A DNA stretch of 64,000 nt from Acholeplasmatales bacterium (lineage in GTDB: Bacteria > Bacillota_I > Bacilli_A > Acholeplasmatales > JAEDCM01). The translations under genes and the position numbers were made by a program. The stretch spans positions 290-64,289 of the forward strand of contig JAGCWW010000050.1 of assembly GCA_017961685.1 (NCBI GenBank), read 5' to 3'. The notes below the pieces were generated by a model, which was not told where the DNA came from, did not search any database, and saw only the letters and a program-made list of their open reading frames with translations. The number at the start of each line of letters is the position of its first letter. The first letter of the stretch is position 1. This document shows positions 4,245 through 32,306 of this stretch, piece after piece.

Positions 4245-4372
4245 GCATTAAACACCTTTATGAACTAAATGGGGTTCAGTTCATTATCAAAGGGTGTTTT
4301 TTTCTTTAGTTATATAAATATAGTTAATTATTTAAATAAATGATATAATGTATTTGGTGGAGGTGTTATATA

Positions 4373-4630
4373 ATGTTTAATTCTTTAATTGGTGAAAGGG
4401 TAACTGTTGTTGTATCTTCAAAAGCAGAAATATTATTAGAATATACAGGTAATTTATCTAGTGAAAGTGAAGATGCTATAGAATTAACTGATGTTTATAT
4501 TTCTTATTTAATTGCAGATTTTAGTCCTTTTAGTGGGGTACCAGTAAATAAAACATTCATTTATAAAAAAGAATTAGAAAAAGTAATTATTAGTAAAAAA
4601 TATACTATTTCATGTAATAAGTTAGCGTAA
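4373..4630 (+). CDS. Small hypothetical protein (85 aa), possibly Sm-like fold
   Basis: GGTGGAGG RBS 7 nt upstream. The pattern GERVTVVV...YTGNL...DAIELTDV loosely resembles an Sm1 motif. Confidence 0.45.
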   Translation: MFNSLIGERVTVVVSSKAEILLEYTGNLSSESEDAIELTDVYISYLIADFSPFSGVPVNKTFIYKKELEKVIISKKYTISCNKLA

Positions 4631-4703: not shown

Positions 4704-5123
4704 ATGGATTTAAAGAAAATTGAAAAGTTTATAAAAAAACAAAAGGTAAGCTTTATATGTTCAGTAGATAGCGAAAACTATCCTAATGTTAAAGCTATGC
4801 TAAAACCTAGAAAACGTGATGGTTTAGAAGTTTTCTACTTTTCTACTAATACTTCATCAATGAGAGTAAAACAATACTTAAATAACCCAAATGCATGTAT
4901 CTATTTTTATCATAAAGGCTTATTTAAATATGTAGGTGTTATGCTTAAAGGTAAGATGGAAGTATTAACTGATCAAGAAACAAAAAATATGTTGTGGAAG
5001 AAGTTTGATAAGATATTCTATAAAGAAGGAGTTACTGATCCTGATTACTGTGTACTTAAGTTTACAGCTACAAGTGGTAGATATTACTGTGATTTAAAAA
5101 CAGAAAGTTTTGAAATAAAATAA
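4704..5123 (+). CDS. Pyridoxamine 5'-phosphate oxidase-family (FMN-binding split barrel) protein
   Basis: Size and pattern fit (VSFICSVD..NYPNVKAM...FYFSTNTSS.K...L..NP.ACIYF). The start is ATG at 4704, after AGGAG. Confidence 0.55.
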   Translation: MDLKKIEKFIKKQKVSFICSVDSENYPNVKAMLKPRKRDGLEVFYFSTNTSSMRVKQYLNNPNACIYFYHKGLFKYVGVMLKGKMEVLTDQETKNMLWKKFDKIFYKEGVTDPDYCVLKFTATSGRYYCDLKTESFEIK

Positions 5124-5143
5124 CACCAATAATGGTGTTTTTT
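5122..5143 (+). terminator. Terminator
   Basis: AACACCA-ataa-TGGTGTT followed by T-run. Confidence 0.6.
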
Positions 5144-5193
5144 ATTATTTTTTGATATAATAAGTAATGTATTGTGCTAAAGGAGATATTTAT

Positions 5194-6084
5194 ATGGCAA
5201 AAAAGGAAGATAAAAAGAAAAAGAATGAATTATCGAAAGATAATGTATATTTGATACTTAATTTAGTATTAGCTGTTATAACCATGGCACTAGCTGCTGC
5301 ACTAACTGGTAAATCTTTACAGGAAAATGCTGATTTTCACCAGGTAGCACTATTCCTTGGTTTAACTATATTTTCACAAATATTATTTCAATGTTTACTA
5401 TTTGTTGTAAAAGATAGTAAAAGAGATAAGATTAGAGCAGTAGTTGTTGGAATTATTTATATAGGAGCAATGATAACCGCCTTTGCAGCAAGTAAAGAAA
5501 ACTATCTATTATTCTACATTGCTGATGCATTAATATTGCTTGCACTTGCTGTAAATCAGTTTATGCAAATAAACAAGGAAAAAACAAAAAAGGGCATCAT
5601 TACAAATATTTTATTAGGTGTAGTATTAGTTCTATTAACTGTTGCTGTATTTGATGATATAACAGAAGAGGATCTAAATTATGTTCCTTTACTAGCTGTA
5701 ATAATCTTCTTATTTACTTCATTTAAGAAGATACTATTCCCTTCACTAAAACTAGAAAAGATTAGATTATTACTTAACATTTTAGTTAAAACACATACAT
5801 TTGATATTCTAATTTGTTTATTAGCATTTATGATTGCTTTCTCATTTATTCTACCTAGATTTGAACTTTCAATTACAAACTTCTGGGATGGTATGTGGTA
5901 TTGCTTCACTGTTATAACAACAATAGGCTTTGGTGATTTTGTAGCAACAACTCCTGTAGGTAGATTACTAACAGTTATACTTGGTATTTATGGTATTGTT
6001 GTAGTTGCTATTTTAACGAGTGTTATCGTTAATTTCTATAACGAAGTTTCAGCAAAAGAAAGAGCTAGAGATATTATTGAATAA
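5194..6084 (+). CDS. Potassium channel family membrane protein
   Basis: Multi-TM protein ending in a pore helix and selectivity filter, TVITTIGFGDF. The start is ATG at 5194, after AAAGGAG. Confidence 0.8.
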   Translation: MAKKEDKKKKNELSKDNVYLILNLVLAVITMALAAALTGKSLQENADFHQVALFLGLTIFSQILFQCLLFVVKDSKRDKIRAVVVGIIYIGAMITAFAASKENYLLFYIADALILLALAVNQFMQINKEKTKKGIITNILLGVVLVLLTVAVFDDITEEDLNYVPLLAVIIFLFTSFKKILFPSLKLEKIRLLLNILVKTHTFDILICLLAFMIAFSFILPRFELSITNFWDGMWYCFTVITTIGFGDFVATTPVGRLLTVILGIYGIVVVAILTSVIVNFYNEVSAKERARDIIE

Positions 6085-28120: not shown

Positions 28121-29407
28121 TTGATTTGTTTATGCATAGATTTAAAATCATTTTATGCAAGTGTTGAATGTGTATATAGAAACTTAGATTCAATGACTAC
28201 TAAATTAGTTGTTGCAGATGAATCTAGGGGTGGCGGTACTATTTGCCTTGCTGTTAGTCCTGCCTTAAAGGAGTTAGGGGTTAGAAATAGATGTAGGTTA
28301 TTTGAAATACCAAAGGATATAGACTATATTATTGCTAAACCTAGAATGAAAGCATATATGGAAATGAGTGCTTTAATATATTCTATATATTTAAAATATG
28401 TTTCTAAAGATGATATACATGTTTATTCAATTGATGAATGCTTTATTGATATAACTGATTACTTAAAACTTTATAATTTAGAAGCAATGAATTTTGCTAA
28501 AAAAATAATAGATGATGTTTTTGATACAACAGGTATATGCGCAACAGCAGGTATTGGTACTAACCTGTATCTAGCAAAAATAGCTATGGATATAACTGCT
28601 AAACATAATAAAAGTCATATAGCCTATTTAGATGAAGAACTATTTAAGAAAACATTGTGGCATCATAGACCTATAACTGATTTTTGGAATATAAGTTATG
28701 GTACACAAAATAGATTAGCTAAGCATGGTATCTTTGATATGTATGATATAACACAAGCTGATGAATATACTTTATATAAAGAATTTGGAGTAAATGCCGA
28801 ACTTTTAATAGATCATGCTAATGGTATAGAAACATGTACTATTAAAGATATTCATTCATATAAATCAAAGAATAATTCATTATCTAATTCTCAAGTTTTA
28901 TTTAGTGATTATAATTATGATGATGCTTTATTAGTATTAAAAGAAATGGTTGATTTAGAAGTAATGGAATTAGTCGATAAAGGCTTGGTTACCCCATCTA
29001 TTAGTTTATCAATAGGATATTCTAGTAAGATGCCTAATAGCTATGAAGATTATCGTAGTATTCCATCAACTGGTGGAACGATGAAGCTAAGTACTATTAC
29101 TCAATCAAGAAGAGAATTAATGGATTCTTTTACTGATTTATATATTAAAACAACGCATAAAGATATACCTATTAGACGTATTACAATTTCTTTTAATAAT
29201 GTAGTTGATGAAATATATCAAACTTATGATTTTTTCTCTGATACAAAAAAACTTGAAAAAGAAAAAAAGGTTGTAAAAACTGTAAGTGAAATTAATGAAA
29301 AATATGGTAAAAATTCAATACTTAAAGCAATGGATTTAGATCCTAAAGCGACAACTAAAATGCGTAATAAACTTATAGGAGGACATAACAGTGGAGAAGA
29401 TGAGTAG
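28121..29407 (+). CDS. Y-family DNA polymerase (UmuC/DinB/UvrX-like)
   Basis: TTG start 6 nt after AAGGAGG. Motifs IDLKSFYASVE and SIDECFIDIT. Confidence 0.85.
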   Translation: MICLCIDLKSFYASVECVYRNLDSMTTKLVVADESRGGGTICLAVSPALKELGVRNRCRLFEIPKDIDYIIAKPRMKAYMEMSALIYSIYLKYVSKDDIHVYSIDECFIDITDYLKLYNLEAMNFAKKIIDDVFDTTGICATAGIGTNLYLAKIAMDITAKHNKSHIAYLDEELFKKTLWHHRPITDFWNISYGTQNRLAKHGIFDMYDITQADEYTLYKEFGVNAELLIDHANGIETCTIKDIHSYKSKNNSLSNSQVLFSDYNYDDALLVLKEMVDLEVMELVDKGLVTPSISLSIGYSSKMPNSYEDYRSIPSTGGTMKLSTITQSRRELMDSFTDLYIKTTHKDIPIRRITISFNNVVDEIYQTYDFFSDTKKLEKEKKVVKTVSEINEKYGKNSILKAMDLDPKATTKMRNKLIGGHNSGEDE

Positions 29408-29702
29408 ACGCGATAGAGCAAAACAATTTTTACCATTTAATTCCCTAAGAGGTTATTATGATTTAATTAGAGAAAAAGAAAAAGAAGTTACACCTAAAAG
29501 AGAATTATCAAATGATGATTTATTAGAATTATCAAACAAGTTAAAAGAAATAAAAAAGAACAGGATGGTTAAAATAACATATTATGATGTTGATTCATAT
29601 AAAACAATATCGGGATTAGTATCAAAAATTGATTTTACTTATAAGTATATTGTGATTGTTAAAACAAAGATTAGCTTTAACGACATAAGTGTCATCTATT
29701 GA
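29400..29702 (+). CDS. YolD-like protein
   Basis: N-terminal RAKQFLPFNSLRGY motif. It overlaps the polymerase stop and shows the typical pairing with a Y-family polymerase. The start is ATG 29400 or GTG 29391. Confidence 0.6.
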   Translation: MSRRDRAKQFLPFNSLRGYYDLIREKEKEVTPKRELSNDDLLELSNKLKEIKKNRMVKITYYDVDSYKTISGLVSKIDFTYKYIVIVKTKISFNDISVIY

Positions 29703-29719
29703 TTTTGTTGTTATATTGT

Positions 29720-29815
29720 TATATAATTTAAGTGCGAAAGTAATGATAAATAGATTTCAAGAGAAAAAAGGATAGAGTTCGTGGCTCTATCCTTTTCGCA
29801 TTTGGTGAGACAAAG
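29720..29815. repeat. Repeat unit 1: TATAAT, AAGTGCGAAAG box, terminator hairpin, TTTTCGCATTTGGTGAG
   Basis: TATAAT at 29722-29727. Box at 29730-29740. Hairpin GGATAGAG-ttcgtgg-CTCTATCC at 29770-29792. On the minus strand the hairpin is followed by T6. Confidence 0.45.
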
Positions 29816-29864
29816 ACTAGTTTAAAATCATAAGAAACATTTATTGATTTTGCTTTTGTATTAT

Positions 29865-29955
29865 TATATAATATAAGTGCGAAAGCAATGATTAATTGAG
29901 AAAAAAAGAAAAGGATAGGCTGCAACCTATCCTTTTCGCATTTGGTGAGGCAATG
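29865..29955. repeat. Repeat unit 2 (145 nt downstream of unit 1), same architecture
   Basis: TATAAT at 29867-29872. Box at 29875-29885. Hairpin GGATAGG-ctgcaa-CCTATCC at 29913-29932. On the minus strand it is followed by TTTTCTTTTTTT. Confidence 0.45.
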
Positions 29956-29976
29956 ATTAATTAAGTTTAATAAATA

Positions 29977-30045
29977 TTAACGCTTATCTCTAAGCATTAT
30001 AGTTATAGTAACAAGTACTACAACTAGGACTACTAAGTAATCCAT
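29977..30045 (-). CDS. 22-aa hydrophobic peptide MDYLVVLVVVLVTITIMLRDKR (candidate type I toxin-like peptide)
   Basis: ATG 5 nt after GGAGG. A single TM-like segment with a charged C-terminal tail. The unit 2 terminator hairpin lies about 45 nt downstream on the same strand. It is too short to appear in the ORF track. Confidence 0.4.
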   Translation of the reverse strand: MDYLVVLVVVLVTITIMLRDKR

Positions 30046-30047
30046 AT

Positions 30048-30092
30048 TTACCTCCGCATCATGCACATTGCCTCATTTAACAAGTGTTTCAT
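30048..30092 (-). CDS. 14-codon leader ORF MKHLLNEAMCMMRR, whose last codons and stop overlap the SD of the 22-aa ORF
   Basis: GGAGG, 7 nt, then ATG. It ends CGG AGG TAA, where GGAGG is the SD of the downstream peptide ORF. Confidence 0.25.
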   Translation of the reverse strand: MKHLLNEAMCMMRR

Positions 30093-30232
30093 TGCTAAAC
30101 CTCCTGCACCACAATAGTGGCAAATATATTATAACGCAATAAATGGCTTTATTAAGCCTTTTCTTTTTGAAAAATTTATCAAAAAATGAACCTAAATTAG
30201 TATAAATTTTATCATATTTTATCAAAAAATAA

Positions 30233-30254
30233 TTTAAAAACTTTTGTTTTTAAA
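30233..30254 (+). promoter_or_regulatory. Palindrome TTTAAAAAC-N4-GTTTTTAAA next to the -35 region of the COG0523 promoter
   Basis: Perfect 9-bp arms. The extended -10, TGGTATAAT, is at 30276-30284. Confidence 0.3.
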
Positions 30255-30306
30255 GTGGTTTAAAAGTTTTATATGTGGTATAATATTATGATGGAAGGTG
30301 ATTAAA

Positions 30307-31389
30307 ATGACTAAAATAGATGTATTTTCAGGATTCCTAGGTGCTGGGAAGACTACACTTATAAAAAGACTTATTAATGCCTATAAGGGTGAGAAAGTTG
30401 TCCTTATTGAAAATGAGTTTGGTGAGATTGGTGTTGACTCATCATTCTTAAAGGATGCAGGATTTGAAATCAAAGAAATTAACTCTGGATGTATTTGCTG
30501 TACATTAGTTGGTGATTTCACAAAAGCTTTAAAAGAAGTAATTGACGAATATCGTCCTGATAGAGTAATTATTGAACCATCAGGGGTTGGTAAACTATCT
30601 GATATTAAACATATTATTGAAAAAGCAGGATTAACTCCTAATATGTTAGTAACTGTTGTTGATGCATCAAAGGGTAAGTTATATATGCGTAACTTTGGTG
30701 AATTCTTTAATGATCAAGTTAAAGAAGCTACAACAATTCTAATTAGTAAGGTTGATAGAACACCTGAATCAAAAGTATTAGAGCTTGCTGATTTAATTAG
30801 AGAAAAGAATCCAAATGCTAATATTATCACAACACCAATTGCTGAACTTGAAATTAAAAAGCTAATTGAAATATTTGAAAATGATAAATCAATGTTAAAT
30901 GAATTAATTGAAGAATTAAATCATGAACATCATGAACACGATGATGATGACGATGATGATGAATGTGAAAGCCATGAACATCACCATCATGAACACGGTG
31001 AAGAATGTCACTGTCATGATCACGAACATGAACACGAACATCATCATGAACATGGTGAAGAATGTCATTGTTATGACCATGAACACCATCACCATGATCA
31101 CCATGCAGATGAAATATTTGATAACTGGGGTATTGAAACTCACCAAGCAGTTTCAAAAGGAGAACTTGAAATCTTCTTAAATAAACTTGCTAATGATGAT
31201 ACACTAGGTATAATACTTCGTGCAAAAGGTATTTTACGTGCTAAAGATGATACTAATTGGTACTATTTTGATTTAGTTGATGACACATATGAAATTCGTT
31301 TAGGTAAGCCAGATTATGCAGGTAGAATTTGTGTAATTGGAGCAAATATTGATAAGACAAAAATTAGTAATTTATTCCTTAAAAAATAA
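30307..31389 (+). CDS. COG0523 (CobW/ZigA/YeiR-type) metallochaperone GTPase with a His/Asp/Cys-rich insert
   Basis: P-loop GFLGAGKTT, CxCC motif GCICC, IIEPSG, SKVD. A ~65-aa tract HEHHEHDDDDDDDECESHEHHHHEHGEECHCHDHEH... with an internal HEHGEECHC(H/Y)DHEH repeat. The start is ATG at 30307. Confidence 0.85.
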   Translation: MTKIDVFSGFLGAGKTTLIKRLINAYKGEKVVLIENEFGEIGVDSSFLKDAGFEIKEINSGCICCTLVGDFTKALKEVIDEYRPDRVIIEPSGVGKLSDIKHIIEKAGLTPNMLVTVVDASKGKLYMRNFGEFFNDQVKEATTILISKVDRTPESKVLELADLIREKNPNANIITTPIAELEIKKLIEIFENDKSMLNELIEELNHEHHEHDDDDDDDECESHEHHHHEHGEECHCHDHEHEHEHHHEHGEECHCYDHEHHHHDHHADEIFDNWGIETHQAVSKGELEIFLNKLANDDTLGIILRAKGILRAKDDTNWYYFDLVDDTYEIRLGKPDYAGRICVIGANIDKTKISNLFLKK

Positions 31390-31391
31390 TT

Positions 31392-32306
31392 ATGAAGCAA
31401 ATACCTTTATTTATAATTAATGGAATGCTTGATGCTGGTAAAACAACATTTATTCAAACAATTATTCATCAAGATGGCTTTCATAAGAAAGGCACAACTC
31501 TTCTAATTACTCTAGAAGAAGGCGAAGTTGAATATGATAGCTTAAAACTTCTTGATGATTATAATACAACAGTTTTAAGTTTAAATGATGATACAGTTTT
31601 ACCAAAAGAAAAGCTAGAAAACTTAGTAATGATGCATCGCTTTGATAGAGTAATTATTGAAAATAATGCGATGAGTGAAAATGTCTTAGAATTACCTGAA
31701 TGCTTAATTGTAAGTCAAATAATAACTTTAATTGACTGTGAAACTTTTGAAACTTATTATCAAAATATGCGTGTAAAGATGGCTGATATTATTAGACCAG
31801 CTAATCTAATATTATTTAATAGAATTGATGGCTTTGAAGATAAACTACTTAGCTATAAGAGAAGCTTAATGCTATTAAATGCTGATGCTGATTATGTATT
31901 CCAAAATAGTAAAGGCGAAGTAATAGATACATTAGCCGATGAACTTCCTTATGATTTAAATAGCGATATTATCAAGGTTGAAGATAAAGATTATGGTGTA
32001 TTCTTTATTGATACATACGACCAAAAAGAGCGCTATGAAGGAAAAAAAGTAAATTTAGATTGTGTATGTTATATGCAAACAGATGGGACTGTAGTAGTTG
32101 GACGTTTAGCTATGACATGCTGTGAAAATGATATTCAATTATTAGGCTTCTTTACTGACATAAAAGAAACATTTAAAGCTAATGAATGGATTAATTTAAC
32201 TGCAGAAATAAAATATGAAGTTATTGAGGATGAAGAAGAACCAGTATTTAAAGTAATTGAGTATAAAAAAATCAAACAAATCAAAGATCCAGTGGTTAAT
32301 TTATAG
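31392..32306 (+). CDS. COG0523-like P-loop paralogue lacking CxCC, with a C-terminal CC-motif domain (DUF1980-like?)
   Basis: P-loop GMLDAGKTT and VIIENN in place of E.SG, with no CxCC. The C-terminus VVVGRLAMTCCENDIQLLGFF resembles the R..isCCaaDa...Gf motif recalled for YcgQ/DUF1980. Confidence 0.55.
   Translation: MKQIPLFIINGMLDAGKTTFIQTIIHQDGFHKKGTTLLITLEEGEVEYDSLKLLDDYNTTVLSLNDDTVLPKEKLENLVMMHRFDRVIIENNAMSENVLELPECLIVSQIITLIDCETFETYYQNMRVKMADIIRPANLILFNRIDGFEDKLLSYKRSLMLLNADADYVFQNSKGEVIDTLADELPYDLNSDIIKVEDKDYGVFFIDTYDQKERYEGKKVNLDCVCYMQTDGTVVVGRLAMTCCENDIQLLGFFTDIKETFKANEWINLTAEIKYEVIEDEEEPVFKVIEYKKIKQIKDPVVNL

Follow-up and report, generated by a model that had tools for sequence, protein, structure and literature searches.

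A probable type I toxin-antitoxin-like cassette with a leader ORF and a facing antisense RNA in an Acholeplasmatales genome

What occupies the unannotated gap between yolD and cobW in an Acholeplasmatales MAG? The stretch of DNA that was analysed, referred to here as the window, is 64,000 nt long, and the gap within it holds a compact conserved cassette at ~29690-30170. A preliminary description, made from the letters alone, had placed two short ORFs on the minus strand, each with a GGAGG Shine-Dalgarno (SD) sequence, the final codons of the first (CGG AGG TAA) forming the SD of the second, with a TATAAT -10 element upstream and a strong terminator downstream. Both ORFs are present and their coordinates were verified; the SD within the end of ORF1, the promoter and the terminator, a 13-bp hairpin, were likewise confirmed (Table 1). 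What can be read off directly is the sequence anatomy and its conservation, together with the coding signature of ORF2, the covariation of the RNA and the matching of address segments. In our judgement the cassette is probably an insulated type I toxin-antitoxin (TA)-like module, composed of a leader ORF, a membrane peptide gene and a facing candidate antisense sRNA.

Table 1. Features of the cassette (positions are those of the window).
Feature	Position	Strand	Remarks
Outer-edge hairpin GGCTTTATTAAGCC and T-run	30145..30168	both	terminator on both strands; overlaps toxin -35
Toxin promoter, TTAATA-16-TATAAT	30128..30155	-	relatives: TTAACA-17-TGnTATAAT
5'-terminal hairpin of predicted toxin mRNA (GCCAC UAUU GUGGU)	30108..30121	-	complementary across loci despite sequence change
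SD1 (GGAGG) of leader	30100..30104	-	invariant, 5-7 nt before AUG1
ORF1, leader ORF MKHLLNEAMCMMRR	30048..30092	-	last codons contain SD2; SD1, AUG1 and a short ORF in 15/15 loci
Clamp 5' strand (GAGGCAAUG, leader codons 7-9)	30066..30074	-	10-bp helix with 29947-29955
SD2 (GGAGG) of putative toxin ORF	30051..30055	-	invariant in all loci, 4-5 nt before AUG2
ORF2, putative toxin MDYLVVLVVVLVTITIMLRDKR	29977..30045	-	15 loci, 22-24 aa
Toxin 3'UTR element: CAUUGCCUC (clamp 3' strand), AAUUAAUCAUUGC (target of sRNA 5' segment)	29947..29962	-
Shared bidirectional terminator hairpin	29908..29937	both	minus: T7 follows; plus: weak tail CGCAUUUGG
Candidate antitoxin sRNA, ~68 nt (ends inferred)	29879..29946	+	predicted duplex with toxin mRNA 3' part, -80 to -92 kcal/mol
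sRNA 5' recognition segment, GCAATGA and locus-specific TTAATT	29885..29897	+	direct repeat of 29950-29962
Promoter of cognate sRNA (unit 2), TTGATT-17-TATAAT	29844..29872	+	promoter scan
Orphan sRNA unit 1, boundaries approximate	29734..29809	+	5' UGCGAAAGUA mini-hairpin, terminator hairpin 29766-29796, CGCATTTGGTGAG tail
Promoter of orphan sRNA unit 1, TTGATT-17-TATAAT	29699..29727	+	promoter scan; tandem repeat D1/D2, 78-81% identical to unit 2

The arrangement is beyond chance, because the predicted 226-nt toxin transcript has a folding z-score of -7.9 relative to dinucleotide shuffles and the cassette recurs in 14 other diverged loci. Metagenomes were the source of these further toxin-bearing loci, which occupy no fewer than six chromosomal contexts. 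A degenerate 3'UTR pattern was searched in metagenome contigs and all of its matches (11/11) were true homologues, and CobW homologues led to three syntenic lineages. Conservation of the ORF pair in relatives had been named beforehand as a check on the reading, and it is real, the pair being kept in 15 loci. The YolD|CobW context was recognised from the Pfam calls supplied with the contigs, with L073 and L075 assigned by sequence; a Pfam scan gave the others as HSP33|MscL, FMN-reductase|OTCase, ?|RpoZ-Gmk, LysR|TldD and ?|permease. In one close relative (CobW 90% identical) the site is empty, only 54 nt separating yolD and cobW with no module between them. A LexA/SOS link, suggested by the umuC-yolD neighbours, was considered and dropped, since the module is found in five other unrelated contexts.

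We then asked whether ORF2 is a gene. Among the 13 loci analysed, 13 synonymous codon variants stand against 15 conservative amino-acid variants, hydrophobic residues being exchanged for one another, and the variable sites at codon positions 1/2/3 number 9/4/12. The synonymous variation is spread over 10 codons, indels are solely multiples of three, and lengths of 22, 23 and 24 aa are the only ones found. By this signature ORF2 evolves as a coding sequence, and its product is predicted to be a single helix with a polar or basic tail, which bears out the earlier account of a single-TM-like peptide with a basic tail. A type I toxin is defined as a small (20-60 aa) hydrophobic protein encoded by a short (150-400 nt) mRNA (PMC8594479); ORF2, at 22-24 aa on a predicted mRNA of ~220 nt from promoter to terminator, falls within both ranges. 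The hydrophobic stretch is short, ~16 residues, and we counted this against the toxin reading.

These codon patterns also bear on whether the region might be a repetitive intergenic element without coding function, either a MITE-like sequence or a repeat that carries a terminator, in which the ORFs are incidental to AT-rich DNA. Tandem repetition, dispersal over several contexts, the breaking of contigs of other assemblies within the region and the dominance of hairpins would all fit such an element. We nevertheless consider it very improbable. The distribution of ORF2 changes over codon positions, the synonymous variation at 10 codons and the 3n-only indels all oppose it. Furthermore, the SDs and start codons of both ORFs are invariant, a pair of opposing promoters is maintained with fixed spacing, and no bounding terminal inverted repeats were found.

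A coding ORF2 could still specify a harmless small membrane protein, for instance a subunit with a regulatory or accessory role, whose expression a cis-antisense RNA would tune, with no addictive TA pair. Many membrane peptides of 20-30 aa are non-toxic regulators, and the L085 homologue tolerates an Asp inside the hydrophobic stretch. The neighbours, however, are at least six unrelated housekeeping gene pairs, and the module thus has no constant partner gene. Its presence or absence also differs among close relatives, and tandem decayed copies and a deletion allele retain the sRNA while the toxin is lost, the only indirect pointer to toxicity. In addition, elaborate locking of the mRNA and insulating terminators on either side are usual, to judge from known type I systems (PMC8594479, PMC8309996), for genes that do harm when their expression leaks. 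A harmless ORF2 therefore seems unlikely to us, and we retain the reading of ORF2 as a putative toxin.

The predicted toxin mRNA carries several structures that are maintained by compensatory change. The stem of the 5' hairpin is GUAC/GUAC, UCAC/GUGA, GCAC/GUGC or CCAUA/UAUGG in other loci, two stem pairs of the shared terminator show compensatory changes across loci, and the clamp has an A-U pair in the window where 11 other sequences have U-A. The outer-edge hairpin is kept in all loci, the toxin-deleted L074 included. In the consensus fold 98.2% of cells are paired and nine pairs show compensatory changes (RNAalifold and pair counts), where the consensus structure was derived from the same alignment used to score it; 0 of 500 shuffles reached this value, and slid controls dropped to 37-50% paired. 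The same closed fold was predicted in 12/12 sequences, with an unpaired probability of 0.03-0.14 for AUG2 in 10 of the 12, and SD2 was only partly paired (unpaired probability 0.3-0.85). The covariation supports the predicted closed form of the toxin mRNA, which has its leader ORF clamped by the 3'UTR. When the 3'UTR was blocked in silico, SD1 opened rather than closed.

The leader of 14 codons described earlier is present in the window, where SD1 lies 7 nt ahead of AUG1 and SD2 5 nt before AUG2 within the last codons of ORF1, and it proves to be a derived variant of a family norm of 12 codons (12/15 loci). In all 15 loci the leader ends at or just before the toxin SD. Its stop is the TAG of uAGGAGG in 11 loci and a TAA directly before AGGAGG in L085, and its frame spans the 5' strand of the clamp helix in each lineage. 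The hok/mok-style layout that had been proposed holds to this extent, an SD-driven leader reaching to or next to the toxin SD in 15/15 loci; the mok-like overlap with the toxin ORF is absent. The leader peptide itself lacks conservation, with 2 synonymous against 13 amino-acid variants, often radical, and codons 1-9 are conserved at all three positions. From this substitution pattern the peptide sequence is without purifying selection, and so only the act of translation could matter, if anything. Conservation of the leader could reflect constraints at the RNA level.

It is accordingly conceivable that the module is real and that the leader is untranslated, or that its translation is irrelevant, GGAGG-AUG and the next 36 nt being conserved as RNA. 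The segment would then serve as the 5' strand of the clamp, as a hairpin presenting AUG1, or as a ribosome standby or decoy site, and the toxin would be initiated directly at SD2. The substitution pattern of the peptide favours this, as do the shifted frame of the leader in the L063/L075 lineage and the base pairing of leader codons 7-10 and of SD1 in the consensus fold, in which the first two G of SD1 pair with CC of the 3'UTR. SD2 is moreover a perfect AGGAGG at optimal spacing and partly accessible, and short open frames are common at 28% GC. Against it, the SD1-AUG spacing is an optimal 5-7 nt in 15/15 loci, whereas the pairing needs just two of the five SD1 bases. The stop stays at the same codon despite the TAG-to-TAA difference in sequence, and even the frame-shifted lineage retains an SD-driven ORF that crosses the clamp and stops 7 nt before SD2. 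An RNA-only leader is a serious possibility, though one we doubt; the account below is of a leader that is translated.

Facing the toxin gene, a candidate sRNA converges on it and overlaps its terminator, and the sequence holds both features expected of an antisense gene, an own promoter and complementarity. The promoter has a TTGnnn -35 element (TTGAnn in 11/14) and TATAAT at the same spacing in 14/14 units, with differing flanks. Complementarity to the toxin mRNA comprises ~45 nt of cis overlap and ~20 nt of matched address. The variable part of the address matches within and not between loci (cognate 9.9 vs 5.65; 0/20,000 permutations). All strong pairing falls at the 3' end; pairing to the toxin 5' half was no better than that of shuffled sRNA, and an Fst/SprA1-like contact with the toxin 5' region was rejected for this reason. 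The plus-strand tail after the shared hairpin is weak and was not called as a terminator, which leaves the 3' end of the sRNA uncertain: if it ends at this hairpin, the predicted sRNA stops ~30 nt short of the toxin stop codon, and it may read through to the conserved plus-strand terminator at 30145-30168. In the toxin-bearing loci every toxin gene is paired with an intact sRNA unit, an observation biased by the search pattern, which sits in the sRNA/3'UTR junction. Five sRNA units are without an intact toxin: unit 1 of the window, L068, L072, L077 and the deletion allele L074. Of the nhmmer profile built for the toxin mRNA, only model positions 160-214 find a match at unit 1. The convergent promoter-bearing sRNA, the locked mRNA fold, the patchy distribution over many contexts and the decayed sRNA-only copies are hallmarks of type I TA systems that the preliminary description had not noticed.

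For the transcription, toxicity, coupling and decay mechanism of the cassette we infer the following scheme. An extended -10 promoter would drive a minus-strand toxin mRNA of ~220 nt with, in order, a 5' protective hairpin, SD1, a leader of 12-14 codons, SD2, a 22-aa hydrophobic single-helix toxin with a basic C-terminus, the 3'UTR and the terminator. The 3'UTR (UCAUUGCCNC...CC...UGC) would pair with the central part of the leader ORF and with the edge of SD1, and AUG2 with sequence just past the stop codon. With the clamp and AUG2 paired in this way, the toxin start would be poorly accessible by itself. A ribosome translating the leader would have to melt the clamp and would terminate on or next to SD2, so that leader translation could lead to toxin initiation through coupling or reinitiation. 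On the other strand, a ~70-nt sRNA would be made from its own sigma-70-type promoter, its second complementary stretch serving as a hypervariable 5' 'address' for the toxin 3'UTR of its own locus. Together, sRNA and toxin 3' end would form a long duplex of about 20 + 45 nt, which would target the mRNA for decay through RNase III-type cleavage, as with the 3'-overlapping antitoxins of B. subtilis. A direct effect of the sRNA on translation is uncertain. Because the in-silico 3'UTR block opens SD1, sRNA binding alone is not predicted to stop translation and the decay step is assumed; a pure translation-block model, with the sRNA sequestering SD1/SD2, was dropped in favour of decay on the same grounds.

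Searches against known families placed the cassette in none of them. Pfam and NCBIfam gave no family at E <= 10 for the 22-aa or the 29-aa peptide, neither Hok nor Fst, and the ORF2 peptides were absent from a collection of 15 billion proteins. Rfam, which holds the antitoxin RNAs of 13 type I families (PMC8594479), gave no match at the gathering score, neither for the window nor for the 10 related loci scanned, and the sub-threshold matches were at chance level. Phage and plasmid records gave no match by blastn, nor by tblastn of the peptide, to which the low-complexity filter may contribute. No match was obtained in scans of viral contigs with family-wide patterns, or with PHROGs and PADLOC. 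Several candidates were discarded as chance matches: L001, found in viral contigs with an exact pattern from the two window copies; the 56 viral loci that match GTGCGAAAGNAATGAT, among which L019 and L043 lie inside coding sequence; and L061 (Eggerthellaceae) and L062 (Melioribacter) from an exact-pattern scan of GTDB genomes, in which the species of the window was unmatched.

Homology is a poor guide to type I TA systems, which have been reported from few phyla (Proteobacteria, Firmicutes and Tenericutes; PMC12390103). The 15 diverged loci form a natural series in which RNA fold, leader ORF and antisense recognition segment are readable from sequence, and the cassette exposes a systematic lack of annotation in the genomes of uncultured Acholeplasmatales from rumen and gut. 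We suggest, tentatively and as something short of probable, that it represents a new TA class in wall-less, Gram-positive-derived bacteria, which would unite two logics until now met only separately: a translated leader that must melt a 3'-to-5' clamp before toxin synthesis, and a 3'-side antisense RNA that owes its specificity to a fast-evolving address repeat beside the shared bidirectional terminator. If so, a single genome could accommodate numerous toxin/antitoxin pairs orthogonal to one another, which could diversify through compensatory co-evolution. The address segments would be ready-made orthogonal RNA-RNA pairs, and RNA-RNA pairs of type I systems are now being engineered (PMC12721322). 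Confirmation of the leader-plus-clamp arrangement would mean that a hok-like regulatory logic arose independently in the Bacillota/Mollicutes lineage. We know of no report of hok/ldr-like leader-plus-clamp logic for Gram-positive-type systems.

How does the cassette compare with known type I systems? Fst/RNAII (par of Enterococcus faecalis pAD1) and SprA1/SprA1as likewise have convergent RNAs with a common bidirectional terminator and an asRNA on the 3' side that does not overlap the toxin ORF, and Fst is also a small single-helix toxin with a charged tail. In par, complementarity outside the overlap is supplied by direct repeats flanking the terminator. The decisive complementarity of Fst/SprA1-type systems lies outside the overlap (PMC8594479). 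The cassette shows the same predicted convergent RNAs, shared terminator and predicted pairing outside the overlap, the site being the 3'UTR past the stop codon and not, as in Fst/RNAII, the translation initiation region. It differs further from Fst/RNAII in its leader ORF, in a 22-24 aa peptide outside the Pfam/NCBIfam Fst models and in having no Rfam antitoxin match.

For bsrG/SR4, txpA/RatA, bsrE/SR5 and yonT/SR6, all of Bacillus subtilis, pairing between antitoxin RNA and toxin mRNA occurs at the 3' end of the latter, as predicted here, and decay through cleavage of the duplex is the established action. These toxins are of 38-59 aa, with no leader ORF and no locus-specific address repeat described, and they have no sequence or covariance-model match to the cassette. 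Their asRNAs overlap the toxin ORF (PMC8594479), unlike the predicted cassette sRNA, which falls short of it if it terminates at the shared hairpin. According to the summary in PMC12390103, SR4 binds the 3'UTR and alters the conformation of the mRNA. The 19-aa Ibs toxins of E. coli (Ibs/Sib) are also very short and almost wholly hydrophobic, and their loci, like the cassette, are duplicated in tandem in intergenic regions (PMC2887945); Sib, however, is fully antisense to the whole ibs ORF, and the system has no leader ORF and no sequence similarity to the cassette.

The hok/mok/sok and ldr/rdl systems of Enterobacteria have, like the cassette, a leader ORF upstream of the toxin, in their case a regulatory one, and these are the only families for which T1TAdb annotates leader ORFs (PMC8594479). 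As predicted for the cassette, their transcripts are locked by a fold-back of the 3' end onto the 5' leader region; the hok 3' end is described as competing for the mok translation initiation region (reference 31 as cited in PMC8309996). The resemblance does not amount to kinship with hok/mok: the peptide has no Pfam or NCBIfam match, Hok included, Hok (~50 aa) and Ldr (~35 aa) belong to proteobacterial systems, and mok overlaps hok extensively whereas the cassette leader stops at the toxin SD. Moreover, Sok and Rdl lie wholly within the span of the mRNA and bind the leader initiation region at its 5' end, while the cassette sRNA is predicted to pair with the 3'UTR. A leader ORF and a covariation-supported fold-back are nonetheless both present in the predicted mRNA. 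The cassette thus appears to define a new type I TA-like family, in which a hok/ldr-style leader and clamp are joined to a Gram-positive-style 3' antisense RNA.

Rechecking the sequence placed the two minus-strand ORFs with their GGAGG SDs, the promoter and the terminator exactly where the preliminary description had put them (listed below). The 226-nt toxin transcript was predicted to fold at -79.4 kcal/mol, vs -47.7 kcal/mol for dinucleotide shuffles (z = -7.9). That description had inventoried the minus-strand ORFs of the gap and overlooked candidate sRNA units on the plus strand, where two tandem units of ~145 nt are 78-81% identical. The toxin terminator, read on the opposite strand, forms the hairpin of unit 2, which makes unit 2 a predicted convergent sRNA gene with a bidirectional terminator in common with the toxin mRNA. 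Unit 1 carries no toxin gene, and the toxin mRNA profile matches it over the 3'UTR and terminator part only. The initial finding is genuine but less complete than the module now described, which represents a family of type I TA-like modules that is both conserved and new.

Features of the toxin gene and the sRNA units in the yolD-cobW gap
Feature	Position	Strand	Details
Toxin promoter	30155-30128	minus	TTAATA-16-TATAAT
Toxin mRNA 5' hairpin	30121-30108	minus	GCCAC-UAUU-GUGGU
SD1	30104-30100	minus	GGAGG
ORF1 (leader)	30092-30048	minus	MKHLLNEAMCMMRR, then stop
SD2	30055-30051	minus	GGAGG, within final codons of ORF1
ORF2 (putative toxin)	30045-29977	minus	MDYLVVLVVVLVTITIMLRDKR, then stop
Toxin 3'UTR	29976-29938	minus	39 nt
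Toxin terminator	29937-29908 (hairpin)	minus	13-bp hairpin, then T7
sRNA promoter, unit 1	29699-29727	plus	TTGATT-17-TATAAT
sRNA promoter, unit 2	29844-29872	plus	TTGATT-17-TATAAT
Predicted sRNA, unit 2	~29879-29946	plus	about 68 nt
sRNA unit, order of elements		plus	promoter, motif AAGTGCGAAAG[T/C]AATGA, A-rich linker, hairpin, tail CGCATTTGGTGAG
Outer hairpin	30145-30168	plus	canonical terminator GGCTTTATTAAGCC + T-run
Address examples			window TTAATT; L068 GTTTATAAAAA; L073 TAATTATAAAGAA; L079 TTATGACTA; L085 TATGTGAA

Syntenic relatives of the window (GC content about 28%; proteins NCBI MBP5445685-726) were taken from contigs encoding CobW homologues of 66-90% identity. Same-strain metagenome contigs carry identical copies of the module, and diverged modules lie between yolD and cobW in four related loci (L063, L068, L084 and L085). 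In a close relative whose CobW is 90% identical (L067:2856-2911, equivalent to window 29702-30298) the yolD-cobW gap is 54 nt with no trace of the module, so that this site is cleanly polymorphic for presence or absence of the cassette; L071, a more distant relative, also lacks it. Scanning metagenomes with a degenerate pattern taken at the 3'UTR/terminator junction gave 11 loci, all of them true homologues. Modules occupy at least six chromosomal contexts: YolD/CobW (Pfam calls on contigs; L073 and L075 by sequence) and, from a Pfam scan, HSP33/MscL, flavodoxin-like reductase/carbamoyltransferase, ?/RpoZ-Gmk, LysR/TldD and ?/xanthine/uracil permease. Nothing similar was found among phage records, plasmid records or viral contigs.

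Several features of these surroundings were recorded. Immediately upstream, at window 28121-29702, the genes for a Y-family DNA polymerase (IMS domain) and the YolD-like protein overlap by 17 nt; this pair is absent from L071 and so may also be accessory. Downstream (30298-32306) lie two CobW-like genes, the first for a COG0523/CobW GTPase that has a long insert rich in His, Asp and Glu, the second with a DUF1980_C domain, which together look like a metal (zinc) homeostasis pair; the extended -10 promoter upstream of them (TGTGGTATAAT) is kept in all relatives. Right after the outer hairpin, every context has the motif TTTGATAAAA(T/A)TT (window 30159-30230; flank in L072-L084), and between the window module and the cobW promoter TTT(T)ATCAAAAAAT (repeat D4) occurs twice; a UP element or a site for protein binding could lie here. 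In many cases CobW-bearing contigs are just 1-3 kb long, and several independent assemblies break within the toxin gene or 3'UTR: the window-equivalent ends are 30006 for L003, 29971 for L004 and a point just inside the terminator for L070. Such breaks would be expected of a module, or an sRNA part of it, that varies between strains or is present in multiple copies in these samples.

The ORF pair is conserved: ORF2 was found in 15 loci, and in 15/15 an AUG follows SD1 (GGAGG) by 5-7 nt. The ORF2 consensus is M[DE]Y[LI]V[VIF]LV[IV][AV]L[CVFD][VIT]I[TAS][IMLY][ML][LI], then 4-6 polar residues with a K/R-R/H end. Lengths are 22, 23 or 24 aa, and all indels are therefore multiples of three. Over 17 ungapped codons in 13 loci (11 distinct sequences) we counted 13 additional synonymous codon types (at Leu11, for instance, CTA, CTC, CTG and CTT all occur) and 15 additional amino-acid types, hydrophobic swaps throughout; variable sites by codon position were 9/4/12. 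Judged by this pattern of variation, ORF2 is very probably a gene. Pfam, NCBIfam, PHROG and PADLOC models gave no match to the peptide, and no ORF2-family peptide was found in a 15-billion-protein collection. One homologue (L085:797-1011), which lacks the 5' hairpin, has Asp at position 12 within the hydrophobic helix (MEYIVFLVIALDVITYLLKDNRH) and may be attenuated or decaying; its contig has a run of N within yolD.

Twelve loci have a 12-codon leader reading MK[YH]L[LF]KVAM and then three variable residues. The TAG within uAGGAGG ends it in 11 of these, and a TAA immediately 5' of AGGAGG does so in L085. The window leader has lost the family stop and is two codons longer, and L063 and L075 carry a 1-nt insertion, the SD-driven ORF there being MIYHYEGGND with its stop 7 nt upstream of SD2. 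Leader variants comprise 2 synonymous vs 13 amino-acid changes, some radical, and the peptide sequence is not conserved. In every lineage the leader reading crosses the 5' strand of a long-range helix with the toxin 3'UTR, the clamp. If the leader has a role, it would act via its translation, which is itself inferred.

The consensus fold of 12 toxin transcripts (RNAalifold, alignment A3) has a GCA/UGC closing helix, SD1 GG paired with CC of the 3'UTR, AUG1 presented by a small hairpin, the 10-bp clamp joining GUGGCAAUGA (leader codons 7-10) to UCAUUGCCAC of the 3'UTR, three ORF2-internal hairpins and the terminator. Standard pairs fill 98.2% of cells with double changes at 9 pairs, a GAGG/CCUC compensatory change is present in the window clamp, 0/500 column shuffles reached the observed values, and pairing falls to 37-50% when the partners are slid. 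By eye, the 5'-terminal hairpin also covaries (GUAC/GUAC, UCAC/GUGA, GCAC/GUGC, CCAUA/UAUGG). Single-sequence folds recover the closed architecture in 12/12 transcripts: AUG2 pairs with sequence right after the stop codon (predicted unpaired probability 0.03-0.14 in 10/12), and SD2 is only partly paired. Covariation extends into two ORF2-internal hairpins, one of which begins at the G of AUG2 and spans codons 1-7 (window 30043-30025). Here pair 87-97 joins codon 2 (GAU/GAA) to codon 6 (AUC/GUC/UUC, through its first base) as AU 5, UA 4 and UG 3, so that Asp/Glu at position 2 covaries with Val/Ile/Phe at position 6 via an RNA base pair; it is RNA pairing that imposes this amino-acid covariation.

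In all 14 toxin-side sRNA units a TTGnnn -35 (TTGAnn in 11) stands 17 nt from TATAAT, amid divergent flanking sequence. The 10-16 nt after the conserved GCAATGA, the address, are hypervariable across loci and recur within each locus on the same strand just past the terminator, where this second copy fills the stretch of toxin 3'UTR that separates the stop codon from UCAUUGC. Cognate addresses score 9.9 vs 5.65 for non-cognate ones, and the observed total was matched in 0/20,000 permutations. Co-evolution of the sRNA 5' segment with the toxin 3'UTR follows from this and implies that the sRNA and the toxin mRNA base-pair. Predicted duplexes with the toxin 3' part reach -80 to -92 kcal/mol; with the 5' half, the sRNA pairs no better than shuffled versions of it do. 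Read-through may also give a longer antisense RNA spanning the whole toxin gene, because the plus-strand tail of the common hairpin (CGCAUUUGG) is a weak terminator and the outer hairpin stands at the far edge of every module. Read on the minus strand, the outer hairpin is again a terminator and would keep transcription that enters from upstream, e.g. from mscL or OTCase elsewhere, away from the toxin promoter. Within a 305-aa ORF (window 5826-5847, minus strand), the sRNA 5' motif is matched with 3 mismatches (AAATGAGAAAGCAATCATAAAT), probably by chance; the toxin mRNA profile finds nothing there.

These findings suggest a type I TA-like cassette in which the toxin mRNA would be made locked, both by the clamp of its 3'UTR over the leader and by pairing of AUG2. 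Leader translation would open the clamp and bring the terminating ribosome onto SD2. The sRNA would pair with the terminator region and the address segment, giving a near-continuous duplex at the mRNA 3' end that most plausibly leads to cleavage and decay. A pure translational block by the sRNA is not supported, because blocking its 3'UTR site in silico opens, rather than closes, SD1.

Every toxin gene found has an sRNA unit, a count biased by the search pattern, and four loci (window, L068, L072 and L077) have an extra toxin-less unit. L074 (reverse strand, about 4940-5330), in the HSP33/MscL context common to L078, is a natural deletion allele. The toxin promoter and leader are missing, as is most of ORF2, and the outer hairpin is joined directly to a remnant that keeps the last toxin codons, the 3'UTR and the sRNA gene. 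Toxin loss with the antitoxin kept is what an addictive pair would predict.

Neither the window nor any of 10 related loci gave an above-threshold match to an Rfam family. Sub-threshold matches in one locus (L082:4232-4320, plus, and 4303-4471, minus) to the Enterococcus antisense sRNA Ref66 (25 bits vs gathering 92) and Listeria rli28 (24.7 vs 45) probably stem from the terminator hairpin and do not indicate membership. Our literature searches found no description of this feature combination for Gram-positive-type systems and no link between type I TA systems and Acholeplasma. The antisense-side layout is the Gram-positive one, with the antisense RNA on the 3' side and partially overlapping. 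As in Fst/RNAII and SprA1/SprA1as, the interaction reaches beyond the overlap and the toxin ORF is not overlapped (PMC8594479); their extra site, however, is the initiation region, whereas here it is the 3'UTR. Leader ORFs are annotated solely for the hok/mok and ldr families (PMC8594479), and for hok, competition by the 3' end is described in the account that PMC8309996 cites (its reference 31). With its leader ORF and predicted 3'-5' fold-back, the present module is reminiscent of hok/mok and ldr. Unlike in hok and ldr, this leader does not overlap the toxin ORF and is not targeted by the antisense RNA.
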